Assembly: GCA_050273025.1 (NCBI GenBank)
Contig: CP158635.1
Location: forward strand, 9,796,001-9,860,000
DNA from: Cenococcum geophilum
Lineage: Eukaryota
Direction of reading: 5' to 3'
DNA length: 64,000 nt
Part shown: one piece after another, positions 14,886-59,330 of the stretch
Layout: each line of letters starts with the position of its first letter
How positions within the stretch are numbered: position 1 is the stretch's first letter
The notes under the pieces: model-generated
Databases searched by the model: none
What the model was told of the DNA's origin: nothing
Seen by the model: only the letters and a program-made list of their open reading frames with translations
Made by a program: the position numbers and the translations under genes

Positions 14886-16104
14886 GTATAGAAATACTAA
14901 ATATATATACGGCTGGCATTTAGTAGAAGTCTAAAAGTTAGGAGACTTAATACTTTAACTAAAAAAATTCCTTATAAAAAAATACTTAAATAAATAATAG
15001 TAGTAGGAATACCTAGAGAATATATGTCTATAGTATATTAAGGACAAAAAGTAAATAAAGTATTAGCTAAAGGGTAAGCTAAATATATAAGAATCTAGTA
15101 GCTAATAGTTAGGAAAAGTAAAGGCCTATAGAACTAAAGGGAGCTAGTAGTAGAGCCTTAAACCCTTAAAGGAATTTAAGAACAATACCTAAATTTATAA
15201 GTTAAATAGCAAGATTAATAGTTTAAAGTATTAGTAGATAGTAGAGCAATAAGAAACTATATCTTACTAATAGTAGTTAAAAAAAATAGGGCTACCGTAT
15301 AGGTAAAGGGAGTACCCTTATCCCTTAGTTATAATTTTAGGAGATCTAATAGCCTATAGAGGAGGTATTATTAATCTTAAAATAGGACCTATTTAGATAA
15401 CTATTAAAGAAAGATAAATTAAGATGTCTTTTAATATATTACTATTAGGGAATAATAAGGTAGTATTAGGAATACCTTAGTTATAAAAATATAATCTAAA
15501 GATCGATTAAATTATAGGTTAGGTTAATATTAGAGATACTTAATACTATAAAATATAATAATAAACTAAGTTAGTATAGTACTAAGTTAGAGTAATATAT
15601 AAGGAAACTAAGAAAGGACTAAGTTATATACTAAAAAGATACTATAAATATGGTAAGAAGCTATAGTTACTAAAAAGTAAAAAGCTGTTAGAATATGCAG
15701 TATAGGACTATAAAATAGAATTAGAACTAGAAATAAGTCTATAAGCTTACTAAAGAAAAAGGGAGAGCACTAAAAGAGTTTATCTAGGAAAACTTATAAA
15801 AGGGATATATTAGACTATTATAGTTATTAGTAGAATATCTAGTACTATTTATACTAAAGAAAAACGGAAAACTTAGGCTATGCATTAATTATAGATAGTT
15901 AAATAGTATTACTAGGAAGGATAGATATCCTTTACCCTTAATTAGTAAGATTTAGGATAGGATTAGTAATATATAAATCTTTATAAAGATAGACCTAAGA
16001 TAGGCGTACTATTAGATTAGAATTAAGGAAGGTAATAAATAAAAGGCAGCCTTTAGGTTAAAGGAAGAACTATATAAACTATTAGTTATATAATTTAGGC
16101 TTAT

Positions 16105-22100: not shown

Positions 22101-22374
22101 CAGTGTATAATTACAGCACCTGTCGTACCAACCGCGTGCTTACGCGCTCGGTACGCCGAGTACGCGTTTACGCGTTTGGTGCACCAACCACCCGCTTACG
22201 CGTCTAGTGCACTTCTAAAGCACTAACTAATTAGGGGGGAGGCGCATCAGTATATAGACTACGTAGTCTGCTTCATACAATCGACAGTCACCACCGTCTA
22301 AATAAGCATACGATACTATACGTATTTCGTGCCCCTAGACACGACTCACTTGTACCATTAAATTGGTACAAACA
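16105..22374 (+). mobile_element. Copia/Ty1 LTR retrotransposon, GalEa-like, full length, lightly RIPed, inserted in the RT of family A copy 2
   Basis: 271-bp LTRs at 16105-16375 and 22104-22374; TSD CTTAT; CFVCGKEGC*SIRY knuckle near 18248; protease IDIGA near 18670; HRLYRRFGY integrase start near 19100; RT GL*IDN (QTDD) near 20875; KRLMVD and ADAITK at the RNase H end; order PR-IN-RT-RH. Confidence 0.95.
17371..17491 (+). repeat. 15-bp coding tandem repeat (GCTATAGATCCGCAA-like, about 8 units) in Copia gag
   Basis: Directly visible; it also produces the spurious minus-strand RIYSL-repeat ORF 17261-17491. Confidence 0.85.
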
Positions 22375-24484
22375 CTTATAAACGCACTAATAATGTTCTA
22401 GAAACGTATTAATAATATATTAAAAGAATACTTAGATAAATTTATTATAGTATACCTTAATAATATTATTATCTACTTAATAAGTAAGAAAGAGCACGGA
22501 GAATACGTTAAATAGGTTTTAAGGAGACTATAAGAAGAATAAATGCTAGTAGTAATTAAAAAATGCGAGTTCTTTACTAGGAAAACCGATTTTATTAGAT
22601 TTATTATTAAACTAGGCCAACTTAATATAGATTTAAAGAAAATTAAGGCTATAGTAAATTAGTAAGAACTAGAGAACGTTATATAGTTAAGGTTGTTTCT
22701 AGGGTTTTGCAATTACTATAGAAGGTTTATAGCTTAATAGTTAAAAAATATTAAGCTATTTATAAGGTTAATAAAGAAAGAAGAACCTTAGGTATAGGGA
22801 GAAGAGTAGAGGAAACTATTTAAGGAGGTTAAGGAGTTATTTACTTAAAACCTAGTCCTTAAAATCTACTAACTAAAACTAGAAATAGTGGTCGAAATAA
22901 ATATATTAGACTTTATACTAGGGGTATACTTTCTATAGAAATATAAGAATAAATAGTACCTAGTAGCATACTATAGTTAAAAGATAACACTACTAGAACT
23001 AAACTATAACATCTATAATAAGGAGTTATTAGGTATAGTTATAGCACTTTAGAAATAAAAAGCATTCTTATAAGGTATGAAAAAGCTATTTATAGTTAAG
23101 ATAGATTATAAGAACCTAATAGGGTTCCTAATAATAAAAGAACTTAATTAGAAATAGGTTAGATAGGTAGAGATACTTATAAAATACTATTTTAAGATTT
23201 AGTATACTAAGGGTATAGATAATATATAAGCAGATACTTTAAGTAAAAAAGCTAAACTATAAAATAATAAAAAGCTATTAGGGGCTTTACTATAAAAAGA
23301 CATAGACGGTTTAATTAGATATAATTACCTAAAAATTATAGTAATAAGAGAAATTAGTTAGACCTATATATTACTAAAAAGTAATTAGTTATAAAAAATC
23401 TAAAATGTATAAATAGAGGATCCGAACTTAGAGTAATACAAAAGCTAAAAAGTAACGTATATACTAAAAAACATTATAAGAGAATTTATTAAGTTATTTT
23501 ATAAGGGATTAACTTAAGGACATAATGGAGCTATGGGCTTAGTATTAAAACTTTAAGAGAAGTATATTATTAATAGAATTTAGGGACTAGCGAGATAAGT
23601 TATAAAGGAATAAACTAGCAAGATATAAGCTATATAGAGGGCTATAACCTATTAAAATACCAAAGAGACTATAGGAGGTTATATTATAGGACTTTATTAT
23701 AAAGTTGCTAAAGTTAAAAGATCCTATTACCGGATAAGATTATAATATAATTTTAGTAATAGTGGATAAGCTAATAAAGTGGGGATACTTTATAGCATAT
23801 ATAGAAGAAATCTTAGTAGAAGATATTGCTAAAATCTATATTAAAGAAGTGTTTATAAGGTATAAAGTACTAAGTAAGATTATATTAGATAGGGATTTAA
23901 GATTTATAGTAGTATTTTAGGAGGTATTCTTAGCGGAATAAGGAGTTTAAGCAGTAACTTCTACCGCATATTATCTATAAATAGACGGTTAAACAGAAAG
24001 ACTAAACTAGATACTAAAATAGTATTTAAGGCATTACGTTAATTACGTATAGAATAATTAGGTATTACTATTACCAGTTATATAATTCGCATATAATATA
24101 ATACTGTAAGAAGGAATAGGGATATTACTATTTAAGGCGAATTACGGATATAAGCTAAGAATATTGCTATTACCGCGCTAGGTAAAGAAAATAAGTAGTA
24201 TAGCTAAGTAAAGAATGGAGATACTAATAAATCTTTATATAAACCTTACGGAAATAGCTAAGGTGGTACAGCAAAGAATAAAAAAGTACTATAATGCTAA
24301 GAGATTTAAGGGACTAGATTTTAAGGAGGGAGATAAAGTGTAGCTACTATATAAAAATTTTAAAAGTTAATAACTAAGTAAGAAATTAGACTACGTTAGA
24401 CTAGGACCTTTTAAAATTATATAAAGAATTTCACTAGTTATACTTAAGTTAAACCTACTAAGATTTACCCTATATAGTATATTG

Positions 24485-32493: not shown

Positions 32494-33300
32494 GAGCTAC
32501 TAAAAAATTTAAAAAAACGCTATAAAAAAGGTACAGGAGTATTAGAAGGGAAAAAATTAGGTAATATTAATAAAGAAGGATTACTAAAGAATAAACCACC
32601 TAAGAGGGACCTAGAAGGAGCACCTACCGAGGTATTTAGAAATATTTTCTCCCCTATTAGAAGAGAATCCGTTCTTTTATTACTAAGTTTCTATAAACCT
32701 TATTCTATAAGTTTCCACTCCTTAAAATATACCTTTTTATAAACTTTTTTAAGATGGATTAACTAAGCAGATATAGCAAGCTAAAAATTAAAAGCGCGTT
32801 GCTAAGTATTAGTAGCCTCCTTTTTAGCGTTACGGGAATAATAAAGTTTAGTAAGAGTAACTAAAAGCTTATTGTTAAGCTTTATAGTAGTAAATTAAAC
32901 CTAAAACCCTATAATAAATTACTTAGGGAACTTAAAGACTATTAAGAGTAATAGGACGCGTATATTTAGCGTTAGAAATAAAGCGAATATTATAGAATAA
33001 TTAAATATTTGCTTTAGTACACTCTAAATATAAAGAGGGTTGCTAAGATAAAGGACTTGCTAGTGTAATATAAACTAACCCCTTTTTTGCATAATAAGAA
33101 TATGGAGATAGTATTATCTTACCTAAAGATAATATTGTAGTAATAGCATAAGACTAACGAGCTATAGAAGAAGAAGATGGAGCCTTAGGTATAATAAGTA
33201 AGGATATTAACTAAATTAATTAGATAGATATTATACCTCTAGTAAATAACCTAGAGATACTAGGTATCTTTAAGAACAAAGATAGAGAGGAGGGAGATAG

Positions 33301-36909: not shown

Positions 36910-38589
36910 CTATGAATCCAAGACCCTTAGCATCTCATCTACACTTGTGAACTTCTCTCTTTCTTTACCCATAGCCTTTCCCCTCTCTTTCTCTGCCTCG
37001 TCGATTCTCTTCCAGTCTTCCCACGAGACAGGTCTCAATCCCTTCTTCTCTGCCTCATTTTTAATTCCATCCCAACCAAGCCCCGTGTTTGAATCATTGT
37101 TAGAATTGAGGAACGGCACCTGTTGCTCCCAATCCCTTACAATGACATCAGCGGAAGTGAAAGCATCATCCATCGTACTTGCTATTACACCCGTAGGTCC
37201 TCGTTTGACCCATCCAGCACAGTACATTCCGGGTAAGTGGCCTGCAGTGACAGCTCCGGGGCCACTCTGGGGATTTATAATACGGCCATATGGGTCGTTA
37301 GGGATAATTCCCATGCGATCATCGAAAGGAACATTTAACTCAGCAAGACCAGGAAGAGCGGAGGACTTATACCCCACTGAGGGAAAAGCCAGGGATGCTG
37401 GAATATTTTTGATGTGACCAGTTGAAGTGACTTTGACATTACGGTTGAAGGGATCGGAGTCGGGCAGGAAAGAATTTTTTTTGAGATCTATGCTTGAGAG
37501 TTGGGCGGGAGTTTCAGAGAATGATTTGAATGCCGTAGGAGAAAGTAGGAAAGATAAAGCCCATTTTTTCGTAGCCGAAGATGCAGGGGATGCCGATCCC
37601 TTGGTGAGGACCTGAGTAATGCGTTTTTGCGCCCGCGGTAATTTCGCAATCTCAGCTGGAAAGAGGGACGAATCAATCGGTTCAAATGATACATATGGAA
37701 GGTTCATGAGCTCGCGCACTTCTTTGATAGTAAAGGCAGCCTCATGGTTCTATTAGTGAGGTGAAGGTTTAGTCAAATGCAATACGACCTACCTGCATGG
37801 GACCTCTTCTTCCAATAACCCTAACAGATCCCACTCTACTACGGGCTAAGGTTTCTAATGCTTGCTCCGTAATATCTGTCTTCCGCAGTGCGTCTACGTC
37901 GGTCAGTAATATCCGCGCTACGTCCAAAGCGACATTCCCCTGTCCAATGACGAGAGCTTCTTCTCCGGTGTCGAGTTTTGGATTTAGATTCGCATACTCC
38001 GGAAGACCATTATACCAACCAATAAAAGCACGCGCAGAGTATACACCATTTAGATCCTCTCCGGGTATCCCAAGCTTCTTGTCTTTTGACGCCCCATAGG
38101 CAAAGAGGATTGCATCATAGTGCGATTTCAAGGAAGCGAGAGGGATGTCGTGCCCAATGCTGACGTTGCCGATTAAATTAAAGCGTGGTGAGGAGGCTAC
38201 TTCTTCGAATTTTTCTTGACAGTTCTACAATGGCTAGATTAACAGTCATATTGTAAGTGGTATTGAGAAGGCCATACCTTGACTTCCGGATGGTCTGGCG
38301 CCACTCCAAATCGCACCAAACCATAAGGCACAGGAAGACGCTCATACATGTCGACTACAGCATCTTGTATCTTATGCATTATACGGTACGTTGTATAAAA
38401 CCCAGCAGGTCCCGAGCCGATAACCGCAAGACGGAACGGCCTGCTCCTTGGTGTCGCATTGGTGAAATTGCGCTGAGGGCCTCGAGCTCTATTGAAGTTG
38501 TTCTTAAGTGGTTGTTTCCCTGATAAGCCATTTGCAAGTTTCCTTGTGCAGCTTGAACAAATGTATAGTGTGCTGCGAAAGACTTGCAT
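36910..38589 (-). CDS. ARH1: Mitochondrial NADPH:adrenodoxin (ferredoxin) oxidoreductase, about 524 aa; exons 38589-38278, 38224-37793, 37740-36910
   Basis: Motifs AVIGSGPAGFY, PYGLVRFGVAPDHPEVK-NC, VIGQGNVALDVAR, GRRGPMQ-AAFTIKE, GWVKRGPTGVIA and REKF; basic N-terminal presequence; GT-AG introns of 53 and 52 nt join the three ORFs in frame. Confidence 0.95.
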
Positions 38590-39046: not shown

Positions 39047-41085
39047 ATGGGCGGTGGGCAGCCCTACCTGTACGATCCACCGAAAAGATACTCCGCGGTT
39101 GATCCTTACGATGGATTCAACCCGAAGGCTGTGACAATGGCGAGCCGGCAGCCTCCTCCACCTCCGAAACCAAAACCAGAGGGCCCTTTAATCAATATCA
39201 ATAGGCACCCAGACAGCTACTTAACCGTACCCTATGGAAACACCAATGCGAAGCCCATGAGCCCAAGGACGAAGGCAAACATTAAATGGGCAAGATGGAT
39301 ACAGCTGTTTTTCCGAGTACTGCAGTTGCTTGAGGCAATTGGCATGCTGATTTGTGTTATTTGCATTCGAGGAACTCAGGGTACTGAAGGGTGGATTATT
39401 AGGATACCAGTAATTAAGCCACTATACCCACTACTTTATGCCGGTTCTAATTGTTTTCATAGCCGGGAGTTGATATTCTTTCAGGCCTGTATGCGGTATA
39501 CCATCTTCTAAGAACTGCAAAAGCGCGTACGCCAGCCAGCTCCGCAAGCTATCATTTTTTCGCACTTATGATGGATTCCGGTCTTATCCCATTTTATGTT
39601 TTCACGGCATTGATGGCAAACCGTAATTATAACGAGAAACCCGGAACGGATGGTCGATGGCGTACCTTCTTTCCCACTGACGAAGATGCCAATAAAGTTC
39701 TCAACGCAACTTGGCTCATTGCCGTGACCGCCGGAGCTCTACATTGTGCCTCTCTCTTTCTGGATCTATACCTTGTCCTCATGTTCCGAAAGATTTCTCG
39801 GCTACCACCGGACATGAATCCGTTGGAGGACAATCTTACTTCACGCCGAAAGACCAAACATAAGCACAAAAACTCGTCAATCTCTGCCATTACCCCCTTG
39901 ACAGCGGATGAGAAGCGGATGAGCGCTCAGAGCGGCAGCACTGTGTCTCTCCCAAACCGTCAGTCTCAAGCGGATCCTCTCATGCCAAGCCCTGATGCTA
40001 GCAAAGTGTCGTTCTTCCACACCCGCACCAACTCAGACATCAGCTACTCTCCGCACAATCCTACAACCGCTCGACTCTCCCGCACTGATCTCCACCACCG
40101 GGAAGACCTACACCGCAGAAATGACAGCGATAGCGAAACTCTAAACCAGCGGAAATCTTTCCTGGAGGCTCAGTCAATTCGAAGATCACGGCCGAACTCC
40201 CAAGCCCCTTCACAGCGTAACTCTTCTTTTGTCTCTTCATTGGGCCCTGACAATGACAATGACAATGATGATATGAACAATAACCCACCTCAAAAAACCA
40301 GCCGCGAAAGCCTACAGTCTGACAATTGGTTCGTGCACTCTACTGCTGAAGACAACCCATACGTCACGCATCCGTCCCCTACAAAGAATCGATCCAAGGC
40401 CCGATCAAACACTACCTCCCGCGGCTACAATGCTCTCCCACTCTCCGGCAACGTGTCAGACGACGAGCAAATGATGCCGCAACCACTCCGCATGAACCCG
40501 CCCACACCCCCTCCAGCCTCCCGTCCAACCACCGCAACGACAACGACAACCACCAGCACCTACAACAACCCTGATCCAACCAATCATCCAAACCTCGCCC
40601 GCACCCAGACCGTCACCTCCATCAGCACAGACGCCACATTTACGCGCTCACCCAAGCGAGCCGGAACACCCAAAGGCCGCTACTACGGCGACCTCAGAGC
40701 CGCAACCCAGGGCATCCGCAACTCAGCCTCCAACACGACTCTCAACTCACCCACAAAGCCATACTACACGCAGAAACGGCCGACCAGCCCCTCGAAACTC
40801 TCGCCCAAGAAGCCGTTCTCTTCGATCCGCCGGACAGGCGAGACGGCGTACACGCCTATCGAGCGGCAATCACCACGTGTCGTCAGCCGGTCCGGTATTG
40901 ATATCGACGGCGACTATGAGTCCGACTATGCGGTTGATCTGGGAATGGGGGGAGGCCGTCGTAGGGATGTTAGCGGGAAGATTGCTGAGGAGGGACGGGG
41001 AGGCACTGGAGGGCGGTGGGGTGCGGTGGGCACGGGTGGTGGACTAACGTTTAGGAAGGTGAGCGGAGTTGCGTACAGTGCGTGA
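39047..41085 (+). CDS. Uncharacterised fungal membrane protein, about 661 aa, with roughly four N-terminal TM helices (MARVEL-like layout) and a long Ser/Pro/Arg-rich disordered tail; exons 39047-39409 and 39463-41085
   Basis: Intron 39410-39462 (GTAATT...TTCTAAT...CATAG) joins ORF 39047 in frame to ORF 39568-41085; four hydrophobic segments; no RIP signature. Confidence 0.85.
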
Positions 41086-43014: not shown

Positions 43015-45490
43015 TTTCCAGGGGGGGACCCCCTGGACCCCCCTTATATAGAGCTTTTACTTAATTTAGAAGCAGTAGTAAGGCTAAGGCACCTTAGTTA
43101 CTGCTAGGTAGCTTATGTAGAGCTTTGGTAGAGCCTCGTGCAGAGCTTCGTGCAGAGCTTTATGTAGAGCCTTGTGCAGAGCCACGTGCAGCGTGTAGAC
43201 GTACAGGCGTGCAGACGTGCAGACGTTTGTAGAGACGATTGTATGGGCAATTGTATAGACGTTTGATTGATCGTTCGTATGGGCGTTCGATTGATCGATT
43301 GTATGGGTGTTTGATTGATTGATTGATCGTATGGACGTTTGTATGGACGCTCGTATGGGCGTTCGTACGGGCGATCGTGCAGACGTTCGTAGAGCCGTTT
43401 GTAGAGCCGTTCGTGTAGATGATTGTAGAGCCTTCTTAGTATATCAGTGCTGCGTGTTAGTAGAGCTTTAGAGCTCCGTATTAAGCTTTGAGTAGAGCTT
43501 TGAGTAGAGCTTTAAGCTTAAGGGGGAGAACCCCTTGGACCCCCCCCCCCCCCCCTGCGCACTGCGTGCTCTATTCACTGCGTGGGCAGAGCTCTTGCGG
43601 AGGCTTTGGTAGAGCGTTTGGTAGAGCTTTTGCAGAGCTTTGTGTAGAGCTTTGTGTAAAGCTTCGTATAGAGCTTCTATAGAGCTGTATGTAGGCGTGT
43701 AGACGTTTGTACGGGCGATTAATCGTAGAGACGTTTATAGAGACGATCGTATAGGCAATTGTATAGACGTTTGATTGATTGATTATATGGACGTTTAATT
43801 AATCGTTTGTACGGGCGTTCGTACGGCCAATTGTAGAACCTTCCTAGTATATTAGTACTGCGTGTTAGTAGAGCTTTAGAGCTCCGTATTAAGCTTTAAG
43901 TAGAGCTCCGAGTAGAACTTTGAGCTCAAGGGGGAGACCCCCTTGGACCCCCCCTGCGCACTACGTGTTCTATTTACTGCGCGGGCAGAGCTCTTGCAGA
44001 GGCTTTGGTAGAGCTTTTAGTAGAGCTTTTAGTAGAGCTTTTGTAGAGCTTTAGTAAAGCTCCATGCAGAGCTTTAATAGAGCTTTGAGTAGAGCTTCGA
44101 GCGGAGCTTTGTATAGGCGTTCGTATAGGCGTTTGTACGGACGATTGTATGGGCGATTGTAGACGTTCGTAGAGACGTTTGTAGAGACGTTTATAGACGC
44201 TTGTAGAGATGTTTATATAGGCGTCTGATTGATTGTATAGGCGTTTGATCGATTAATCGTATAGACGTTTAATTGATCGATCGTATGGACGTTCGTACGG
44301 GCGATCGTGTAGACGTTTGTAGAGCTGTTTGTACGGACGATTGTACGGGCAATTATAGAGCCGTCGTAGAGGTGTTTGTAGAGACGTTTGTAGAGCCGAC
44401 TATGAGACTTTCTAGTATACTAGTGCTGCGTGTTAGTGGAGCTTTAGAACTTCGTATAGGGCTTTAAGCAGAGCTTTAAGTAGAGCTTTAAGGGGGAGAC
44501 CCCCTTGGACCCCCCTGCGCACTGCGTGCTCCATTTACTGTGTGGGCAGACCTCTTGTAGAGGCTTTGGTAGAGACTTTGGTAGAGCTTTTAGTAGAGCT
44601 TTTGTAGAGCTTTATACGAAGCTTCGTGTAGAGCTTTTGCAGAGCTTTAGTAGAGCTCTATGTAGAGCTTTAATAGAGCTTCGAGTAGAGCTTTGAGTAA
44701 GGGGAGACTCCCCTGCTCACTATGTGCTCTATTCACTGCGTGGGCAGAGCTCTTGCGGGGGCTTTAGTAGACTTTTGTAGAGCTTTTAGTAGAGCTTTTG
44801 TAGAGCTTTTAGTAGAGCTTTATGTAGAGCTTCTATAGAGCTATGTGTAGGCGTGTAGGGTGTAGACGTTTGTACGGGTATCAATTGTAGAGACGTTTAA
44901 TTGATTGATCGTATGGCCGTTCGTACGGGCGTTTGTATGGGCGATTGATCGATTGACCGATTGGTTAATTGTATAGACGTTCGTAGAGCCGTACGTAGAG
45001 CCGTACGTAGAGACGTTCGTACGGGCGTCTGATTGATTGCATAGGCATTTGATTGATCGATTATAGAGCCGTACATAGAGACAATCGTATGGGCGTTTAA
45101 TTAATCAATTAATTGATTATATGGGCGTTTATACGGGTAATTGTGTAGACATTTGTAGAGCCATTCGTAGAGCCGTTAGAGGCAATTGTACGGTGATTAA
45201 TCGTATGGGCGGTTATACGGCCGATTGCAGAACCTTCCTAATATATTAGTGCTGCGTGTTAGTAGAGCTTTAGAGCTCCGTATAGGGCTTTAAGTAAAGC
45301 TTCGAGCAGAGCTTCGAGCAGAGCTTTAAGGGGGAGACCCCCTTGGAACCCCCCTGCGCACTACGTGCTCCATTTACTGCGTGGCTAGTATACTAGGTGG
45401 GCAGAGGTGCTATAAAGCCTTTAGTAGAGCTTTTGGTAGAGCTTTTGCAGAACTTTGTACGGAGCTTTGTGCAGAGCTTTTGCAGGGCTT
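43015..45490. repeat. Higher-order minisatellite array with units of about 200-630 bp
   Basis: Recurring GGGGAGACCCCCTTGGACCCCCC-type marker at about 43021, 43522, 43930, 44491, 44701 and 45330, separated by GTAGAGCTTT and GATT/GTACGGGCGTT short-repeat blocks. Confidence 0.9.
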
Positions 45491-46681: not shown

Positions 46682-46790
46682 TAGTCTTAACACTAGGTTT
46701 CTTAATAAAAGTTAGGTTTATTATAAAGAATAAATTACTATAATTAATATTACTTAAGTCCTTTATATTCTGTTAAAGGTAGAAGTTAGT

Positions 46791-49700
46791 TGTAACGGAA
46801 CCTTGTAGCAATAACTACGGTGGGCTCGTTATTGGGCTAGGTGTGTAGGAAATGCAAGTACAAAAGTCAACAACGTAATAACAACTGGTGGAGTGGTTGC
46901 CTAACAGATTAACTCTAATTATATTCTAAGAATTACTACAAGGAAGAAACTATCTAGGTAGGGACTAAGGGTCCTTAAATATATAACCGTACTCCTATAA
47001 AATCCTTCTTATACGTAATATACGTCTTATATATAAGGTATATAAGTTCCTCTTGTTCCTTTTGTTTAATACGTAGCATATTATATAACCTTAGTTACTA
47101 TTCCTCGTCATATAGTTCTATTGGCTCTATCCTAGACCGTGCCTAAATTAACTAACTAGCTTCTTCCATCTCTTCTCCAAGTAGTCGTAATATTGTACTT
47201 AAAGCGTCCGTAACACTATCTCCCTCCTCTTTATCTTTATTCTTAAAGATTTAAAATATCTCTAAGTCGTTTATTAGAGGTGTAATATCCGTCTAATTAA
47301 TTTAGTTAATATTATTGCTTATTATACCTAAAGCAATTTCTTCTTTATACGCCTAACGTCGTGCTTATACTATTACTGCAATATTATCTCTTAGTAAGAT
47401 TATGCCGTCTCCGTGTTCTTATTGCTTAAAAGAAGGGTTGGTTTATATTACGTTAGTAAACCCATCTTCGCGATAACCGTCCTCTTGCTTAGAGTATACT
47501 AAAGTAAATATTTATTTGTCCTATGATATTCGCTCTACTTCTAATGCTAAATATACGCGATCTATTACTCTTAATAGTTGTCTAGTTCCCTAATTAATTT
47601 ATTTTAGGGTCTCGTATTTAATCTGCTGCTGCGCGGCTAGATAGTAAACTGTTATAAGCCCTTATTAAGTTAGAACGTTCCTATAACACGGAACAGAAGG
47701 CCCTAAATACTTAAATTGCAGCGTCTACTTATCTGCTTTATCTTAAGAAGGTTCGTAAGAAGGTTTGTTCTAAAGAGTAGAAACTTATAGAATAAGGTTT
47801 ATAGAAATTAGGTAATAAAAGAATAAATTCTCTTCTAATAGAGAAGGAAATAGATCTAAGTAGTTCGGCAACTGCTCTTCTTAGGTCCCCCTTAGGTAAC
47901 TTATTCTTTAGTGATCCTTTTTTATTAATACTACCTAACCTAATTTCTTCCGATACTCCTATACCTTTCCTATAGCGTTCTTTAAATTCTCTAGTAGCTC
48001 CTAGGTAGTCTTAGTGTAGCCTATCCACTTAACCTTATACTATGTTTCGTTATTAATATCCTTATAATTAATGATCTTTAATATTTGCTATTCGTCTTCT
48101 TCTTGTCCTCTATATATATCTGCTTTATAGGCTAGTGGCTTAATATTTCTATATGCTAGCTCTAGCATTACAATATGCTGTATAGGGTAGATCTTTATTT
48201 TAGCTAGTAGGTTTAGCTTAAACGTAACTAGTGAAATCCTCTATGTAATTTTAAAAGGTCCTAGTCTAATATAGTCCAATTTCTTACTTAGTCGTTAACT
48301 CTTGAAATTTTTATATAGTAGCTATACTTTATCTCCCTCCTTAAGATCTAGTCCCTTAGATCTCTTAGCATTATAGTACTTTTTTATTCTCTCTTATACT
48401 CTCTTTACTAATTCTATAAGGTCTACATAAAGATTTATTAATGTCTTTATTCTTTCTTTAGCTATACTACTCGTTTTCTTTACTTACCGTGGTAATAACG
48501 ATGTTTTTAGCTTATATCCGTAATTTGCCTTAAATGGTAATATATCTATTCCTTCTTAAGGTGTTGTATTATATATAAACTATATAACTGGTAATAGCGA
48601 TACCTAATTATTTTGTGTATAATTGACATAATGCCTTAGATACTGCTCTAGCGTCTAATTTAATCTTTCCGTTTAACCATCTGTCTGCGGATGGTATGCG
48701 GTAGAAGTTACTGCTTAAACTCCTTACTCCGCTAAGAATACTTCCTAAAATACTGCTATGAATCTTAGATCTCTATCTAATATAACTTTGCTTAGTGCTC
48801 TATATCTTATAAATACTTCTTTAACATAGATTCTAGCGACATCTTCCGCTAAGATTTCTTCTATATATGCTATAAAGTATCCCCACTTTATAAGCTTATC
48901 TACTATTACTAAGATTGCGTTGTAATCTTATCCGGTAATAGGATCTTTTAATTTTGGCAACTTAATAATAAAGTCCTATAATATAACCTCCTATGGTCTT
49001 TCTGGTATTTTAATAGGTTATAGCCCTCTATATAGCTTATACCTTATTAGTTTATTCCTTTAGTAATCTAAATATTCCTTTATAACCTTTCTAGCTATCC
49101 TCTAAATTCCGTTAATAATGTACTCCTTTTAGAGTCTTAACACTAAGCCCATAGCTCTATTATGTCCTTAAGTTAGTCCCTTATAGAAGTCTTCTATAAA
49201 CTACTCTGCTATACTTCTTAGGATATACTTCGCTTCTCGATTTTCGTATATATCCGTCTATAGATCTTTTAGCTATACTTTTAGAATTCTTTATATCTAA
49301 AAGCTTTCTGGTATCTTATAGACTTTCTCTAGTTTATCGTCTTCTTAAGTTGCTGCGATTTTCGGATAATTATACCTAATTAATCCGTCTATATCTTTTC
49401 GCAATAAAGCCCCTAATGGCTTTTCCTTATTTTATAGTTTAGCTTTATGGCTTAGAGTATCTGCCCGCGTATTATCTGTACCTTTAGTATACTAAATCTT
49501 AAAATAGTATTCCATAAGTATCTCTACCCATCTAACCTGTCTTTAGTTAAGTTCCTTTATTATTAGGAATCCTATTAGGTTCTTATAATCTGTTTTAACT
49601 ATAAATAGTTTCTTTATGCCTTGCAAGAATGCTCTCTATTCCTTTAATGCTGTAACTATACCTAATAACTCTTTATTATAGATGTTATAGTTTAACTCTG

Positions 49701-52700
49701 GTGGTGTTATCTTTTAACTATAGTATGCCACTAGGTGCCATTTATCTTAATGCCTTTATATAAAGTATGCCCCTAGTATATAGTCTAATACATCTATTTC
49801 TACAACTGTCTCTAGTTCTAGTTAATAGATCTTAAGAACTGGCTCCTAGGTAAACAACTCTTTGACTTTCTTAAAGAGTTCTCTTTACTCTTCCCCCCAT
49901 GCCTATAGTTCTTCTTTCTTTATTAACCGCGTAAATAGCTTAATATTCTTTAACTACTGCGCTATAAACCTTCTATAGTAATTGTAAAACCCTAGGAATA
50001 ATCTTAACTGTATAACGTTCTCTAGTTCCTACTAATTTACTATAGCCTTAATCTTTTTTAGATCTATGCTAAATTGGCCTAGTTTAATAATAAATTTAAC
50101 AAAATCGGTTTTCCTAGTAAAGAACTCGCATTTCTTAATTGCTACTAGCATCTGTTTTTTTTATAGTCTCTTTAAGACCTATTTAACGTGTTCCCCGTAT
50201 TCTTCCTTAGTTATTAAGTAGATAATAATATTGTTAAAATATACTATAATAAATTCATCTAAGTATTCTCCTAATATATTATTAATACGCTTTTAGAACA
50301 TTGCTGGTACGTTTATAAGCCCGAATTGTATAACTAATAGTTTATATAGTCCTTCCTTTAACCTAAAGGCTGCCTTTTATTTGTTGCCTTCCTTAATCCT
50401 AATTTAATAGTATGCCTATCTTAGATCTATCTTTATAAAGATTTATATATTACCTATCCTATCTTAGATTTCGCTAATTAAGGGTAAAGGATACCTATCC
50501 TTTCTAGTGATGCTGTTTAACTATCTATAGTTAATATATAGCCTTAGTTTACCATTCTTTTTTAGTATAAATAGTACTGGATAACCCGCTAATAACTGCG
50601 ATGGTCTAATATATCCCTTTTATAGATTTTCCTAGACAAACTCTTTTAACGCTCTACCCTCTTCTTTAGTAAGCTTATAGATTAGAAAGAATCTTAAACT
50701 TATTCCTAGTTCCAACTCTATTTTATAGTCCCATACTATATATTCTAACAGTTTTTTACTTTTTAGTAACTATAGTTTCTTACTATACTTATGGTATCTC
50801 TTTAGTATATAGCTTAGTCCTTTTTCTATTTCTTTATAGGTTGCTCTTACTTAGTACTATACTAACTTAGCTTATTGTTATATCTTACGGCGTTAAGTAT
50901 CTCTAATATTAACCTAACCTGTAATCCAATCGATTCTTAGATTATATTCCTATAACTAAGGCATACCTAATACTGCCTTGTCCCGTCCTAATGGTAGGAT
51001 ATTAAAAGATATCTCGATTTATCTTCCTTTAATAGTTATCCAAATAGGTCCTATTTTAAGATTAATAATCCCTCCTCTATAGGTTATTAGATCTCCTAAA
51101 ATTGTAACTAATAGGTAAAATTGCTCCTTTTGTCTGTAAGATAGCCCCATTCTCTTAACTACTGCTAATAAGATATGGTTTCGCGTTACTCCACTATCTA
51201 TTAGTGCTTTAAACTGCTAATCTTACCAATTAACTTATAAATTTAGGTGTCGTCCTTAAATTCCTTTAAGGGTCTAAGGCTCTACTACTGGCTTCCTCTA
51301 GTCTTATAAGCCTCTACTTTTCCTAACTGTTGGCTGCTTAATCCTAGTACACTTAGCTTATTCTTTAGCCAATGCCTAGTTCGCTTTTTATCTTTAATAT
51401 GCCATAAACACGTATTTTCTAGGTATTCCCACCACTATTATCCGTCTAAGTATTCTTCTATAAGGAATCTTTCTAGTTAAAGTACTAAACTTCCTTCCTC
51501 TTAGATTTCTATTAGATGCTATCTATATATATATTTAGCATTCCTATACTATTACTTATCTATTATTCAGTATATCCTTATAGGGTATTTCCAATTCTTT
51601 TCTTTTGGATTCTTATGCATTTTGTATATATCGTCCACGCACACAATCCATAATATCATATAGTGTGCTAGGTGCTTTAGGTTAACTCTTAGCTCGTCTT
51701 CGTCCTTAAGTTTAAACCTTTATTATACTAATCTAAATATTATAACTTTATTTACAGGTACTAAGATGCGCCTCTTACTTCTTTAGTCCTCTAAACATTC
51801 CTCTAGATCCTTTAACGTTATAATTAAGGCTCCTTTAATATGCGTTATAGCCTTCTCTATAATTAGGTGGTCCTAGATAACTTTTTTATCCAACCATATA
51901 TAGAAATCTTCCCACTTATTATTGTGCCTTTGCCTATACCACTTTTAGTATAGCTGCTGGAGTATATACGGTCTATCCGTAAGAAAGTATTTTCTTATTA
52001 CTACATTGTAATAGCCCTTTATATATCGTTCTTTAAACCTAGTTAGAATCCCTAGATCCTCTTTATCTTCTAGTTCGGTAAGCCACTTAGCTCTTAGTAT
52101 ACCTACTCTTAGCCTATTAGTAATTCTTTATACTAGTACTTTATCCTTTATACGTCCTAATATGCTAAATCTCTTGTCTAGTTTCTGCTCTTGCTATGCG
52201 ATAATTCTTTGCCTAAACTCTTCTATGGTTTCTTTTAGTTTGCGCCTTACGCTCTAATTCTTAAAGTCGTCTTGCTTCTTAATCCTAGTATTAATTTTTT
52301 AATCTTTAGTCTAAACACTTTATTTAACTAGTAAATCCTCTAGGTTTATATATTCGTCTCCTAGTCTAATTACTATTTATGCCGCAGATTCTCTAATCTA
52401 TAAAGAAGCTCCTTACCTCTTGTCTATGGGTGTCCTAATTTATACTCCAAATTCTTAACCCCTTAGATTCTTTAGTCCCGAGCTTGCTTCTAACTTAAGC
52501 TTAGCTCCAGCCTTAGTCTAACTAGGCTTACTTAGTATCCTCGTCTTATCTTAAGAGTCCTAGATCTTACTTATCTTATCTTAAGAATCTTATGCCTATA
52601 GGAACTTCTATCCCAAGCTCATTCGTATATTTTTAAACTAAGCTACTACTCTACTCCATCGGTTATTATCCGTTATGGGTCCTTAAGCTTACCTTATCTC

Positions 52701-54741
52701 GTTTTAAGAATCTTAGTTATCTCTTATCTTACTATAAGAATCTTAAGCCTTTAGCCTTTTGCCTTTATTAAGTGCCAAAGTGGTTTACTATCCTACTCCT
52801 TTTGCGTCTTATAAAGTAATAGACATCGTATCTAGTAGGGTTTTAATCCCAACTAATGTTCCCTATTTTATAGTAGAATTATCCTCTACCTCTAGTATAA
52901 CATCTCTAAGGTCTACTTACTCCCAGTAAGCGGCCCTTATTACCTTATCGTCACGGAATGTTTCGCCTAGGTTAAATTTATTATCCTTAATATCCGATCT
53001 GCGAACTAGTTTATTAGTTCCTCTATATCCTATAGGTGCTAGCTTTTATAGCCAATAGCTTGCGCTATACTTAGCGTCCTTATGAATTTAGTATGTGTTA
53101 TTATAACAAAACGCAAAACTTCTAATTAAATATTCTTTTGTTCCTTGTAGTATATTATCATCCCTTTATACGTGTATATTATCTACTAGTTTTATACCTT
53201 TTACTATATAGTAACTCTGCCCACTTCTATAGTCTCTAATATAATAACCCTGTTTTCCGCAATTTATATAAGCTCCTTCTTTAAACCATTTCTCTTATTA
53301 TAGAGTCCGCCTAAATATCTTCTGCTATTAAGATCCCTAATTCGGCCTCTGCTCCTTAGACCTTTAATTACTTAATCCTTATCCTCTAGGTTTTTATAGT
53401 TTACTCCCTCTCTTATAGGCTTCTTTAGTACCACTTAGGTCCATTAGCTCTGCACTATACTATAGTTTCTAACTTAGCTTTTATTGTTGCGTACTTTGCG
53501 CCTTATATAACTATAGAACTCTATTCTAGCCTCTTTTAGCCTATTCCCTTTAGTAGATCCAATTGTTAATCTTAATTACCTAATCTATTAGTTCCCTTAG
53601 GGTATCTATATCTTCCATTAGGATAATCGCGTCCTAGACTTTAGCCTTAAGTCCCTATTTATACTGTGCCATAAGCGCCCTATTATTCCATTCTACTTAT
53701 ATTACTAGTATCTAGAACTATATTATATACTTAATTACTAAAGTTCGTTATATAAGGTTTTAGAGTTTTCTTTCCGCTATAGTTGTTTCTTCTAGGTCTC
53801 TAAATATCTGCGTTAGTCGTTCTATAAATCCTTCCCAACTTAAGAACATAAATCGCACGTCTTAGTTAGTGGTCGTCATTCCATTTACCTATATCTCCAT
53901 AAAGTAAGGTTTAAACTACTTAAGTGCTTTTCCTAATAAGAATAGTCCTATATAGGCTATCCGATCCACGGGTATAGGTAACTTTACTCCCTCTTATAAG
54001 ACCTTAAAGTGCATCTATATAAGGAATCCTTTAAGCTTTAACCTCTCTCCTATAAATCTCTTAATTAATAGTAGCTTAATCTTTGCTGCTCCTATCCCGT
54101 TAAGTCTTTCTTCTAATACTATATTATTAGCTGTTAGCTAGTTAACTATTTCCTATAGCTGTCCGACCGTTACAGGTTGCTATAAGTCAGTATCTGCCAT
54201 ACTAGTATCACCTCCTGTCCCTAAAGTAGTTGCTGCCGTTAATAGTATTATAGTAGCTGCTTTTGGTGGCATATTATTCGACTTCTTATATTAATACTAT
54301 AACTAGGTAGTGATTATATAACGGAACCTTGTAGCAATAACTACGGTGGGCTTATTATTAGGCTAGGTATATAGGAAATGCAAATATAAAAGTCAACAAC
54401 GTAATAATAACTAGTGGAGTGGTTGCCTAATAGATTAACTCTAATTATATTCTAAGAATCACTATAAGAAAGAAACTATTTAGGTAGGGACTAAGGGTTC
54501 TTAAATACACAACCGTACTCCTATAAAATCCTTTTTATACGTAATATACGTCTTGTACGTAAGGTACGTAAGTTCCTCTTATTCCTCTTGTTTAATACGT
54601 AGCATATTATATGACCTCGGTTACCATTCCTCGTCATATAGTTCTATCGGCTCCATCCTAGACCGTGCCTAAATCAACTAACTAGCTTCTTCCGTCTCTT
54701 CTCTAAGTAGTCGTAACATCGTACTTAAAGCGTCCGTAACA
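46791..54741 (-). mobile_element. Gypsy chromovirus, family A relative, full length (7951 bp), uninterrupted, RIP-inactivated
   Basis: 425-bp LTRs at 46791-47215 and 54317-54741; TSD TTAGT; PPT at 47216-47230; gag, PR, RT, RH, IN and chromodomain colinear with copy 2. Confidence 0.95.
47324..48008 (+). pseudogene. Antisense accessory ORF of the Gypsy element: Zn2Cys6-like motif plus coiled coil, with putative intron 47553-47607 (RIPed)
   Basis: IMPSPCSYCLKEGLVYITLVNPSSR*PSSCLEYTKVNIYLSYDIRS; homologous reading in copy 2 (about 32494-33193, minus strand) retains ECTKAN. Confidence 0.7.
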
Positions 54742-54950
54742 TTAGTAGAGTAGTTATTTTATCTAAGTATAGAGATGGAGCACTTTATATATATAAAGCT
54801 ATAATATTTTACGTAATATTTAATAACCTAATCTAATGCGGTCTGTAGTTGTAGTATATAGAATCACTTTCTTAACATATTTAATATAATCTTTTATACT
54901 AATTAAGTAAATATTTAATATTTAATATAAGTTTTAAAATGAGTTTATAA

Positions 54951-57900
54951 TAATAATAATAATAATTTATTACTTAACGTCTAATTTAGATCCCTATTAG
55001 GCCCACGCGGACTACTCCTTATTTACATATAGGGAGAAAACTCTATTTAAGAAAAATGAGAAAACCCCATAATCCATCTCCCCGCCTTTTAGGACTCGCC
55101 TACTTAGCGCCTATAAGTCGCCTATAGTGCTCTACTACCTTACTATTTAACCTCCTTAGGAACCACTACTGCCGTAATAAGCCTACGGACGCGCTAGTAT
55201 TATAAACTATTACTCTACTACTATAGAGTTACTAGGGGGCACCTACTACTCGCCCCCTTACCTTTTATTATTATTTCCCTTATAACCCAGAACTAATTTA
55301 GTATATTTTAACTAATAAGCTACTAGGTAACCGCCTTAAGGCCTTTTTATATTAAGAGTAGTATATTATAGTTCTTTATGCTAGCTACTAAGAGTATTAT
55401 TTCTTAATTAGTGCGTAGGGGGCATAGTAGTATTACGTGTTTTGGTATCTGTTTTGGCTAGCCACATTCGCATCTTAGGCTACCTACTAGGATACCCACC
55501 TAGTAAAGCCAATCTTTTAGTCCTATTATTCCTGTTCTTAAAAGTATTACTATTATATTTTCTACCTTTATTAGGCCTTCTTAGAGCCCTTAGGTATTTA
55601 CCCCCTATAGTATTAATTATGCTATAGCTTAGGTTTATCTTGCCTAAGTTAGCCTCTATACCTTTAACTCCTATTTACCTCTCCAGTATTAGTCTAACCA
55701 GTATTATATTACGGTAGATGGTTTCCTAGCGTTCTTATATGTTTTACTTTAACTCCTTTCTCTATCTTACTGTTATCTTTACTAACCTCTTATACGTCTC
55801 CCTTCCTCCTCTATATAGGCCTAGGCCCTAAAGCGGCATTATTTTTCTTTTACTTTTTTTACCTATTTCTCTAATATCTCTTCCCTACTTTAGGGTTATT
55901 GGTTTATTCTCCTACGGGGCACCCTAAGGTCCCTCTATAGTTTACTTAGGCGTGTTTTAATATACTTTATAACATTAGAGTTGTGTTTATTTTATGTCTT
56001 TTATATTATAGCGGCTTTAATATATAACTATAGGGGGGGGATATTAGATTCCTTCTTAAGCAGTACTATAGCCGTTTGCTTATACCCGCCTATAATACTC
56101 TAAAGGCAGGCTATTTAGACCTTTTAAAGTAGTTTAAGGAGTAATTTAGGGGGGCCCTTTTTAGTTTCTCTAATGGCCTAAATACTAGATCTATATGTTA
56201 TAGTTAGCCAGACGACTGCTATATATAGTAGGCGTAACCTCTAGAAGTATAGACCCTATATAAAATTAATAATCCTAGATAAAGCGATAAACTATACTTA
56301 GCCTTTATAGGCCGCTTATACCGTATATACGCTCTACTAGAGCTTGCTATCTATCTATACTCCTAATACCCTTAGGCCCTAAACTGGTTAACCCCTAAAG
56401 CTTTAAATGCGAATTATATGCTAAAGATTTATAGATTGGTTGCGTTTTCTTATAAAATAAATTAGCTGGTATTTCTTTAGTAAGAATTAGACTCTATAAC
56501 ATTTTGCCTATTCTATATAAATATTATAGGCTTTCTCTAATATTCTGCAATTCTCTACGGCTGTTAGCCCGTATATAATTAGGTTTATATTATTAATAAA
56601 GCTTATCCCCTAGGTCGCCCCTTCCTTAAAGGAGTTAAGTAGGTTGCTTATAAAGAAAAGGAAGAGTATAGGCGAGAGGGGTAATTCTTATAGTATTTCT
56701 GTTGTAACTATAATAGGGGGGCTCTGGTATCCGCTAAAGACTAATAATATTTCTTTCTGGCCTGTAAACCCTTAGATAAATTATATAATCCATTCTAAAA
56801 AGCCCTTTACCCTAAGGATATGCAGGAGACGCTTATAGGGTATATTATTATAGGCACCACTAATATTTAGGCTAAGCATTAATACTATAAAGTCCTTTTA
56901 CATCGCCTATATAGATTTAATAGTGGTAGTAAGTAGCGTAAGTGCTAATAGTATTAAGCGGTTCTTTCTTGCCCCTATTTAGCTTTGTAGTAGTAGGGCG
57001 TATTTCTCTACCGTGTCTGCTATGTATTTTGCTATTACCCTTTCTAAGATCTTGCTAAGGGTGTTTTCTAAGGCAATAGGGCGGTAGCTTCCTAGGATTA
57101 AGTAATCTACTTTACCTTCTTTTTATAAGATAACCGTCGTTATAGATCTTCCGAGTCGCGGGTAGTAGCCTATAGCAAAGTATACTTTGGCTATATCTGC
57201 AAGCTAAGGTGCTATAAGTAGCCCACAGGTTTTTAGGGCCTTATTTAGAATCCTATCTAGTCCTAGTGCTATATTATTTAAAAGGCGGCTAATGGTTCTA
57301 GCCATTTCCTCTATTATTATATCGCTGTCGACCCGTAGGCAAGTCACTGGTATTTCGCTCGTGATATTACTAAGGTCTACTAGAGTCGGTTAGGGGAAGA
57401 ACCTTTTTATAAGGATCTTTGCCTTCTTATCGTTGTTGTTTATAGCCTGTAATTCTCCTACTCTTCATAGGGGTAGTAAGTATAGGTCTTCTGCTAGGCG
57501 CCCTGCCTTTTTCTTTACCCATTTCGCTATAGCCTAAAGGCCCTTATTATGGGGGCAGGTAGTTATATATTAGCTAGTAATATAGTAGAGTTTAATATAC
57601 CTACTTATTTAGGCCTTTACCCCAGTTTTCTAGTGCTTTAGTCCTAAACTATAAGCAGTTAACTGCCACCACTAATTACGGGGAATTTTACCAGTTCTTT
57701 TAAATATCTTATAACGGTATTACCCAAGTACTAGTCTACCCCCCAGTAGTCTATATAAGAGTTTCCTCCTAGAGTTGGTACGCTTTTATATAGCTTAGGA
57801 GCCTTCTATAGCCTCTAGTTTTACGTCTTCTTTATTATTTCCGCCGGCGTAGGTATAAGCTACCGTTTCTAGGGGTTGCAACTCCTATCTTTGCGCCTAC

Positions 57901-59330
57901 TAACGTAATCCTATAAAGGCGTCGTAGCTGCATCCTATAATATAGTTAGGTACACCTTTTACGGACAAGGCCAAGCTACTACCTCTCCCGCCTAAGTAAC
58001 TTCTATTTACTCCTTAAGTATATTTTACTAGCAAGCCGCCCTAGAGGCGAATGGTTCCGTCTATTAATATACTAATACGCGTATCCGTTCTCTTAAGCCA
58101 CGTAGTAGTCTCTTTAGCTAGGGTGTAATTCTGCCTACCTACTAGGTGCACTAAAGGTTAGAGCCCAGTTAAGGGATAAGGTCCTTAGAGCTAGTAGTAG
58201 CTACTACGTACTACGCCTAATAGGAAGCTAGTAGTAATATAGGGGCGTAACACCCTATATACTACTAGTTCCCGTTTTATATTACCTATAAGAGTTTTCT
58301 TATAATAGGCCAACCGTGTCTTATAGAAGGGGGGCCGTAAAGACTAGGTCCCGCACTAGGCGACCTACTCTCCCCCCTCTTACTAACTAAGCTTATATCC
58401 CCCCTTTTTATAAGCTGGCCTATGTCTCTAACTATCAAGTCCTCGTTTAACTGGCCTATGTTTCCCCTATAGCCTCCCCTATATATATACATTAGGTTGC
58501 GTACATTACGTCTATTAAGACCCTCCTGTAAGTCGCCTTATATATATACGCATCAGGTTACGTGCACTACGCCTATTAAGACCCTCCTGTAAGTCGCCTG
58601 TAAGTCAACCATAAGTTAACCGTGAGTTAACTGTAAGTTAAACGCCATAGGGCCGTCAAAGCTGGCCTGTGTTTCCGCTGCCTAGAGCTTTGCGTTGCTG
58701 GCGCGTCGCCGTTGTCTAGGTCGCGCGCACCACGCCTATTAAGACCCTCTTTTAAGTCACCTGGGTGTACCGGATACTAGATAGGCCCTTATGGAGGGCA
58801 GGTAGTTATATATTAGTTAGTAATATAGTAGAGTTTAATATGCCTACTTATTTAGGCCTCTACCCCAGTTTTCTAGTGCTTTAGTCCTAATCTATAAGCA
58901 GTTGGCTGCTACCACCAATTACGGGAAGTTTTACCAGTTCTTTTAGATATCTTATAACGGTATTACCCGAGTACTAGTCTGCCCCCCAGCAGTCTATATA
59001 AGAGTTTCCTCCTAGAGTTAGTGCGCTTTTATACGGCTTGGGAGCCTTCCATAGCCTCTAGTTTCACGCCTTTCTTTATTATTTCCGCCGGCGTAGGTAT
59101 AAGCTGCCGTTTCCAGGGGTTGCAACTCTTATCTTCGCGCCTACTAACGTAATCCTACGGGGGCGTCGTAGCTGCATCCTGTAATATAGTTGGGTACACC
59201 TTCTACAGACAAGGCCGAGCCACTGTCTCTCTCGCCTAAGTAACTCCTGTTTGCTTCTTAAGCATATCTTACTAGCGAGCCGCCCTAGAGGCGAACGGTT
59301 CCGTCTGTTGATATACCGACACGCGCATCC
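54951..59330 (-). mobile_element. Tad1-like LINE, rearranged and RIP-inactivated
   Basis: RT motifs GSYRPIALENTLSKILE (about 57070), LPLSPILFLF (about 56675) and FINN (FVDD; about 56595); (TAA)n tail at 54951-54963; 11-bp TSD TGAGTTTATAA at 54940-54950 and 59331-59341. Confidence 0.9.

Follow-up and report, generated by a model that had tools for sequence, protein, structure and literature searches.

The window analysed here is a 64,000-nt stretch of Cenococcum geophilum (assembly GCA_050273025.1, contig CP158635.1, positions 9,796,001 to 9,860,000, forward strand), fungal DNA with long AT-rich blocks, in which a Ty3/gypsy retrotransposon (element 1) carries a second gene on the strand opposite to pol, placed between pol and the 3′ long terminal repeat (LTR) and tail-to-tail with pol. 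This antisense gene is a dead copy of an accessory gene carried by one lineage of Pezizomycotina Ty3/gypsy chromoviruses, and it was very probably a real and spliced gene before it was inactivated by repeat-induced point mutation (RIP). An initial annotation, made from the letters and open reading frames of the window, had described a gypsy element with an antisense, intron-containing gene between pol and the polypurine tract (PPT), and this arrangement was confirmed by the anatomy of the element, by homologues, and by spliced contigs. Coordinates are those of the window, and the features are collected in Table 1.

The gene is read on the plus strand between the PPT and the end of pol, starting 80 nt past the PPT, and its end overlaps the last ~70 nt of pol on the opposite strand. 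Translation of exon 1 from 47324 gives IPKAISSLYA*RRAYTITAILSLSKIMPSPCSYCLKEGLVYITLVNPSSR*PSSCLEYTKVNIYLSYD..., the stretch IPKAISS...ILSLSKIMPSPCSYCLKEGLVYITLVNPSSR*PSSCLEYTKVNIYLSYD being read on the plus strand from the ATA at 47324. The six-cysteine motif survives in this copy as three Cys and three Tyr codons (TGT 47414, TGC 47423, TAT 47444, TGC 47486, TAT 47495, TAT 47522) with the spacing 2-6-13-2-8. The signals of the intron are ATACGC (47553-47558), CTAAT (47590-47594), and TTTTAG (47602-47607), and excising the 55 nt fuses T and GG into a Trp codon, TGG, across the junction, after which the frame runs to the TAG at 47973-47975. These readings agreed with the initial annotation, which had reported three intact Cys codons and three TAT codons here with the fifth codon intact in the second copy of the window (TGT, 33019-33021), a 55-nt gap with a RIP-altered donor, CTAAT, and TTTTAG that restores the frame, and an end of the gene lying over the pol chromodomain; the Met start that it had proposed is ATA here, and is ATG in 16 and ATA in 40 of 56 aligned DNA copies, comprising 54 metagenome-scan loci and the window's two copies. 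In the window the antisense gene is a fossil that can have no function: its two copies contain 8 and at least 9 stops, and in both of them the start codon and Cys codons are gone.

The second copy belongs to another element, at 5823-33719, which has pol on the plus strand and is interrupted by nested insertions. It is 73% identical to the first copy at the DNA level (590/807) and 63% identical in the exon 1 peptide (56/89), in keeping with the claim of the initial annotation that the peptide was kept despite nucleotide divergence, and the fifth codon alone of its motif is still TGT.

The carrier, element 1, is a Ty3/gypsy chromovirus killed by RIP, as follows from its all-transition LTR mismatches, its RIP indices, and its domain set. 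It has TG..CA ends and is flanked by a 5-bp target duplication (ACTAA at 46786-46790 and 54742-54746), and its two LTRs are 91% identical, with transitions accounting for 36 of the 36 mismatches and 0 gaps. The RIP indices TpA/ApT and (CpA+TpG)/(ApC+GpT) are 1.58 and 0.49 for the element, compared with 0.77 and 1.21 for a genic stretch of the same window. Chromovirus criteria present in the element are the LTRs, the target duplication, the PPT, and the order protease (PR), reverse transcriptase (RT), RNase H; the C-terminal chromodomain gives a match that is weak because of RIP (E 0.077). An integrase core domain was not called in the pol of element 1 at E ≤ 0.001, and SH3_Tf2-1 was. At the 3′ LTR, contigs from three metatranscriptome runs accumulate over 47134-47235 (summed depth 140-2600 vs 10-30 inside the element), and many of the LTR-covering contigs diverge from the window exactly at the LTR edge (47215/47216), a pile-up that points to solo LTRs or to copies of this LTR joined to different internal sequences.

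Relatives of the antisense gene were sought in a protein library of 1.84 billion representatives, one per 50%-identity cluster, and in metagenomes. With the exon 1 peptide as query, all 42 of the 42 scored candidates (49-118 residues) fell at E 2.7e-28 to 6e-5, and a profile built from 27 of these 42 homologues matched 202 library proteins at E ≤ 0.001, 118 of them at ≤ 1e-10; of 606 stretches matched in a single metagenome scan, 523 were relatives. Most exon 1 homologues are RIP-damaged themselves, with swaps of the types C/Y, R/C/H/Y, and S/L/F. Intact frames were also found: P0193 (239 aa) is intact and has six Cys, and P0195 (152 aa, six Cys) starts MPPKVSKRPS and ends at the contig end. 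Both proteins are continuous over the intron site, where they read ...SVSDAEW directly followed by SRV..., and window exon 2 aligns to residues 102-238 of P0193 (E 3e-16). P0151, another relative, reads through the intron, and metagenome genomic loci retain the 55-nt gap. The open frame of P0193 extends back through the PPT into the LTR edge, and in related copies the PPT and LTR edge stand in register upstream of the gene. The name BRTN was carried by no hit of the homologue searches, ten relatives looked up by cluster returned 'hypothetical protein' only, and a Pfam scan of the mutated window peptide returned no family.

For splicing, four RNA runs were aligned to 47100-48100 at 80% likeness, among them X1 and X2, which are metatranscriptomes of different studies. 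X1 and X2 each yielded one contig with the joint 47552->47608, skipping exactly 47553-47607, and other contigs of X1, X2, and X11 traverse the intron unspliced. A spliced transcript had been named in the initial annotation as a check on the gene; what was seen of it is this exact skip in contigs of relatives, and an intron-skipping joint was seen in neither X11 nor X12, the raw reads of X12 being uninformative on splicing (18 aligned of 9.29 million, all partial, 15 less than 90% alike, none over the intron). X1 also contains joints that skip 110 nt and 162 nt, and a joint on the opposite strand; these are probably variants or other family members. Three points weigh against taking the joints at face value: the contigs with the joint derive from relatives (80-95% likeness) and not from the window copy, they may share data sets with P0193 and P0195, so that their independence is uncertain, and RNA libraries can contain DNA and the strand of a contig cannot be read. 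Contigs that lack exactly the GT..AG-bounded 55 nt are nevertheless best explained by splicing in relatives, in which the intron is removed at exactly the predicted sites, and the coding strand is fixed by the GT..AG polarity.

That an antisense intron persists through retrotransposition is an established principle, used in intron-marked retrotransposition reporters. Because the intron is antisense, it cannot be removed from the element's genomic RNA by splicing and is passed on to each new copy. This had been anticipated in the initial annotation, and across the 56 copies the intron showed 0 indels, with the acceptor AG kept in 53/56 and the donor G in 9/56; donors without G carry A, as RIP of TpG would give.

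Coding constraint was measured on the same copies by counting transversion-variable columns, defined as columns with purine and pyrimidine each in at least 3 copies, because RIP makes only C-to-T and G-to-A changes and transversions therefore record non-RIP divergence. For exon 1, these columns numbered 13/77, 3/76, and 25/76 at codon positions 1, 2, and 3, and for exon 2 the corresponding counts were 23/121, 18/122, and 43/122, giving an excess at position 3 over positions 1 and 2 combined in both exons (Fisher, p 7.9e-5 in exon 1, 1.2e-4 in exon 2), and in exon 1 position 2 was below position 1 (p 0.015). Direct comparison of copy 1 with copy 2 gave transversions of 4/2/14 by codon position in exon 1 and 9/4/13 in exon 2, and transitions of the RIP type that were evenly spread (11/19/15 and 34/24/21). 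Distinct gaps were divisible by 3 in 13/17 cases within exons vs 3/11 outside, and with exon 2 ranging from 344 to 389 nt in length, the spliced length was a multiple of 3 in 53/56 copies and the terminal TAG was present in 55/56. In the four least-mutated loci (L001, L004, L003, L014), stops in the frame of the gene numbered 0-1 for exon 1 and 1-4 for exon 2, against 2-11 in every pol-strand frame; a fifth locus, L069, was excluded because its estimated exon coordinates did not keep the frame. The pol C-terminus was found on the opposite strand at most 200 nt from the gene end in 64 of the 66 copies with room to test. As judged from these alignments, the antisense gene was protein-coding and under purifying selection during the divergence of the family. 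Two observations tell against so simple an account. Not one of the 56 close copies is intact, each having 2-13 stops, and the flanks vary less than third codon positions (transversion-variable columns: 5′ untranslated region (UTR) 7/80, intron 7/55, PPT 0/29), from which it follows that part of the constraint acts on DNA or RNA itself.

The ancestral product had ~210 residues, arranged as a short N-terminal helix, the six-Cys motif, a long charged helix, and an acidic, hydrophobic C-terminal tail. In an alignment of 146 diverse rows, the six motif columns are C or Y in 140/143, 143/144, 144/144, 134/136, 134/136, and 122/127 rows, and of the 111 rows that cover the whole motif, 109 have the same spacing, 2-6-13-2-8. 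Among the 56 DNA copies, the motif codons are TGY (Y, pyrimidine) in 31, 41, 23, 25, 50, and 37 copies and TAY in all others, an alternation corresponding to a TpG-to-TpA change, which is exactly what RIP makes. The Cys domain contains 5-6 basic residues in 37, and its 13-residue loop is hydrophobic. AlphaFold2 modelling of P0195 (21 rows) gave a helix at residues 13-28, a Cys region with a predicted local distance difference test score (pLDDT) of 46-65, a linker of ~6 residues, and a long helix at 77-151 with pLDDT > 90; modelling residues 1-100 again, with 146 rows, gave no gain in the Cys region (pLDDT 50-71). The long helix, ~75-90 residues in the ancestral protein and carrying the family motif RLEKVREKVRSKE, is 41-46% charged and contains 0 prolines, and it may be a coiled coil or a single stable helix. 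After QGLRELE, the tail of three intact relatives has 12-14 acidic vs 3-5 basic residues and many hydrophobic residues, with a net charge of -9 in P0193, P0196, and P0199. The initial annotation had predicted a coiled coil and an acidic tail, and of these the long helix was recovered with confidence, the coiled coil itself was not, and the acidic tail holds for the intact relatives and fails in the window copy (5 D/E vs 5 K/R).

The explanation preferred here leads from a real gene to a small zinc-binding regulatory protein, and this full chain is put forward tentatively, with a chance that falls somewhat short of even. The antisense mRNA would begin in or near the 3′ LTR, the six Cys would bind zinc, and the long helix would make the protein oligomeric; the protein, if nuclear, would regulate the element's own LTR-driven expression, and its acidic tail may recruit transcription or chromatin factors to the element. 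The closest layout is that of Zn(II)2Cys6 proteins of the Gal4, Ppr1, and Put3 type (PF00172), which have six Cys as two C-x2-C-x6/8-C halves, after which a short linker leads into a long helix and then an acidic tail. They differ from the present protein in having a middle homology region, which it lacks at ~210 residues, and the present protein is further set apart by its score below the Pfam cut-off, its hydrophobic 13-residue loop, and the failure of fold modelling and structural searches to give a confident match. The Gal4-type spacing claimed in the initial annotation is kept as 2-6-13-2-8, which lies inside the criterion CysX2CysX6CysX5-16CysX2CysX6-8Cys given in PMC2447501, and it is outside the commoner X5-12 motif quoted in PMC4025492, the loop being one residue too long.

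The results that weigh against a zinc cluster or a DNA-binding role extend beyond this residue. Pfam Zn_clus matched P0193 at E 4 (8.1 bits) and P0195 at E 0.075 (13.6 bits, the best), both below the cut-off of 21 bits, and matched at all in 3/21 members of alignment A4 and 1/27 of alignment A1. The AlphaFold check proposed in the initial annotation did not bear out a Zn2Cys6 cluster, since the pLDDT of the Cys region stayed at 46-71 over two runs (21 and 146 rows) and fold and PDB searches returned no zinc-cluster match. Sequence searches of the PDB with P0193 and with the A4 profile returned nothing meaningful (an unrelated chimera at E 0.062, Duo1 at E 0.82, PPR1 at E 4.4), Foldseek on model 1 returned one row, at E 8, and nothing at E ≤ 0.001, and a wide VIA-align search on model 2 returned generic long helices only (Z ≤ 4.4, residues 50-100). 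In the ESM Atlas, the Cys region retrieved unnamed Ascomycota clusters at 0.85 and below, which are leads only. A crude heptad score of the long helix was not clearly above shuffles, being reached by 182, 29, and 58 of 500 shuffles, and a de-RIP-style consensus of the LTR from 110 copies (424 nt, with 4 CGG and 8 CCG) contained 2 CGG..CCG pairs, about chance level.

DUF3716 (PF12511), likewise a small fungal Cys-rich domain, was considered as an alternative family and rejected: it gave a weak hit below threshold in one of 21 members (E 0.018) and none on P0193 or P0195, and an Atlas cluster with DUF3716 on 28% of its members scored 0.75, below lead level.

In one alternative, the gene was equally real and its product was a zinc-stabilised protein- or RNA-binding adaptor rather than a DNA-binding regulator, with a role in particle assembly, nuclear import, target choice together with the chromodomain integrase, or the countering of host silencing proteins. 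An adaptor is favoured by the lack of Pfam and AlphaFold2 support for a zinc-cluster DNA-binding fold, by the few basic residues of the Cys domain and its hydrophobic loop, by a helix that is highly charged with a weak heptad signal, and by the coupling of the gene to the chromodomain end of pol in 64/66 copies; against it, the data indicate no particular partner, and small fungal activators such as Gal4, Ppr1, and Put3 have the same order of Cys6, linker, long helix, and acidic-hydrophobic tail. This alternative is held to be possible, though on the unlikely side. More doubtful still is the most specific form of the preferred explanation, namely a miniature Gal4-like transcription factor, with a zinc cluster, a helix for dimerisation, and an acidic tail for activation, made from the spliced antisense transcript, that would bind its own LTR and activate the element or shield it from silencing; the LTR activator or anti-silencing factor goes back to the initial annotation.

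Under a further alternative, the antisense RNA was the working product, damping the sense transcript or feeding small-RNA silencing, and the frame was secondary. The greater conservation of the 5′ UTR, intron, and PPT relative to third codon positions is what this predicts, and antisense transcripts with RNA-level roles are known for LTR elements, such as Ty1 in yeast. RNA function predicts no codon pattern, in-frame indels, Cys constancy, or intact frames, and this alternative is disfavoured because all four were observed, as the minimum of variation at position 2 (3/76 in exon 1), exon indels that are mostly in frame, nearly invariant Cys columns and spacing, and intact 239-aa and 152-aa frames; it is regarded as improbable. 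The weakest alternative, that there was never a gene and that either a chance frame in AT-rich RIP DNA mimics the Cys pattern or a sense-strand frame was the conserved one, can point to the frequency of Tyr codons in RIP-mutated DNA and to a frame of 90 codons without stops at 47738-48010 (minus strand, the strand of pol, but out of frame with it), and is hardly credible, being already contradicted by intact homologues with six Cys, by TGY at each motif position in 23-50 of the 56 copies, by GT..AG polarity on the plus strand with the intron skipped in RNA-library contigs, and by the 2-11 stops of pol-strand frames in the least-mutated loci. On its coordinates, the 90-codon frame is probably a by-product of the codon structure of the antisense gene, because it has third codon positions in common with that gene.

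By its arrangement, the gene appears to belong to a known kind, that of antisense accessory genes, of which brtn was described in 2011, and it is to that extent less new than the initial annotation implied. In papers citing the original description (Zhao et al. 2011, Virology 417:248; cited in PMC8365987, PMC7264820, PMC4227169, PMC5987419), brtn is an extra gene, in antisense, that Boty-like elements carry in Botrytis and Sclerotinia; it is named as an additional open reading frame (ORF) of BcGypsy1 in PMC8365987, and is grouped in PMC7264820 with antisense ORFs between pol and the 3′ LTR, of unknown function. The likeness, as far as these descriptions go, is one of arrangement only, a Pezizomycotina chromodomain gypsy element with an extra antisense gene between pol and the 3′ LTR, the intron and the six Cys being known here for the present gene. 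PMC5987419 describes a Monilinia transcript with similarity to BRTN as well as to a truncated Pol that has a chromodomain, which agrees with the tail-to-tail overlap of the present gene and pol. Plant antisense ORFs (Grande1, RIRE2, Retand, PvRetro13) share the place and orientation and, as described in PMC7264820, are kept in most copies of a family with unknown function; compared by these descriptions, they differ in belonging to other gypsy lineages, and a six-Cys motif is not among the features reported for them there. Apart from brtn, itself known here through citing papers only, a literature search found no account of an antisense gene with six Cys in the gypsy elements of fungi. HBZ of human T-cell leukaemia virus type 1 (HTLV-1) is a spliced minus-strand gene, expressed from the 3′ LTR, whose small helical-zipper (basic leucine zipper, bZIP) protein regulates the element. 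The present gene resembles it as a spliced antisense gene at the 3′ end of a retroelement, whereas HBZ belongs to a human retrovirus, encodes a bZIP protein without a Cys motif, and is unrelated in sequence, and the transcript start of the present gene is placed near the LTR by inference.

Elsewhere in the window, the 5′ half of a third copy of the gypsy family of element 1 occupies 1-4105 (77-80% identical to element 1); it is cut by the window start, and its antisense-gene region falls outside the window. Within the second gypsy element, a less mutated insertion (16101-22400, plus strand, GC ~0.43) matches the integrase core domain (rve, E 5.9e-6) in plus frame 3, and its ends repeat one another in translation; it resembles a Ty1/copia-type LTR element inserted into the gypsy element. 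Dense direct repeats with 12- and 24-nt spacing (families D1-D4, D6, D9, D10) fill a GC-rich region (0.44-0.50) at 43201-45479 that may be a repetitive coding region, and a direct repeat of ~535 nt is present at 57553-58086 and 58796-59330 (families D7, D8; 88-92% identical, 1243-1244 nt apart). The sole stop-free frames of at least 180 codons in the window lie at 39463-41085 (plus strand) and 36910-37749 (minus strand), with 540 and 279 codons plus an overlapping 183-codon frame, and a Pfam scan of two of these long frames gave no match at E ≤ 1e-4.

Table 1. Element 1, its antisense gene, and the second copy of that gene, in window coordinates.
Feature	Position	Strand	Description
Element 1, RIP-mutated Ty3/gypsy chromovirus	46791-54741	−	LTR pair, TG..CA ends, target duplication, single-frame pol
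Element 1 5′ LTR, 425 bp	54317-54741	−	LTR pair search and boundary reading
Element 1 3′ LTR, 425 bp	46791-47215	−	Upstream of the antisense gene on the plus strand
PPT	47216-47244	−	AAGAATAAAGATAAAGAGGAGGGAGATAG on the element strand; direct reading
pol, protease to C-terminus	47908-51222	−	One frame when stops are read as X
pol, PR	~51222-50953	−	
pol, RT	50568-50101	−	
pol, RNase H	49899-49507	−	
pol, SH3_Tf2-1	48336-48160	−	
pol, chromodomain	~48078-47947	−	Weak Chromo match, E 0.077
Antisense gene, exon 1	47324-47552	+	76 codons + 1 base; first codon ATA (ancestrally ATG); 2 RIP-made stops
Six-Cys motif C-x2-C-x6-C-x13-C-x2-C-x8-C	47414-47524	+	Positions 3, 5, and 6 are TAT
Intron, 55 nt	47553-47607	+	Donor ATACGC (ancestrally GT...), CTAAT/TTAAT branch region, acceptor TTTTAG
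Antisense gene, exon 2	47608-47975	+	Encodes the long helix and the tail; RIP-made internal stops, 6; frame ends with TAG at 47973-47975
Antisense gene, copy 2	32520-33192	−	End coordinates approximate

LTR retrotransposons with extra antisense genes have been described from plants and from Botrytis, and none of these genes is credited with a known function in the account given by PMC7264820. The present family is large (202 proteins at E ≤ 0.001, counted as 50%-identity representatives), has a rigid six-Cys motif and intact members, and occurs in spliced form, and it therefore offers a practical case for working out the function of antisense genes of LTR elements. For annotation, the stretch of 700 nt that separates pol from the PPT in these elements is coding on the opposite strand. 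Should the product prove to be a miniature Gal4-like factor acting on its own LTR, the gene would be a fungal counterpart of retroviral antisense regulators, and may represent a route by which zinc-cluster modules pass between transposons and host genomes.

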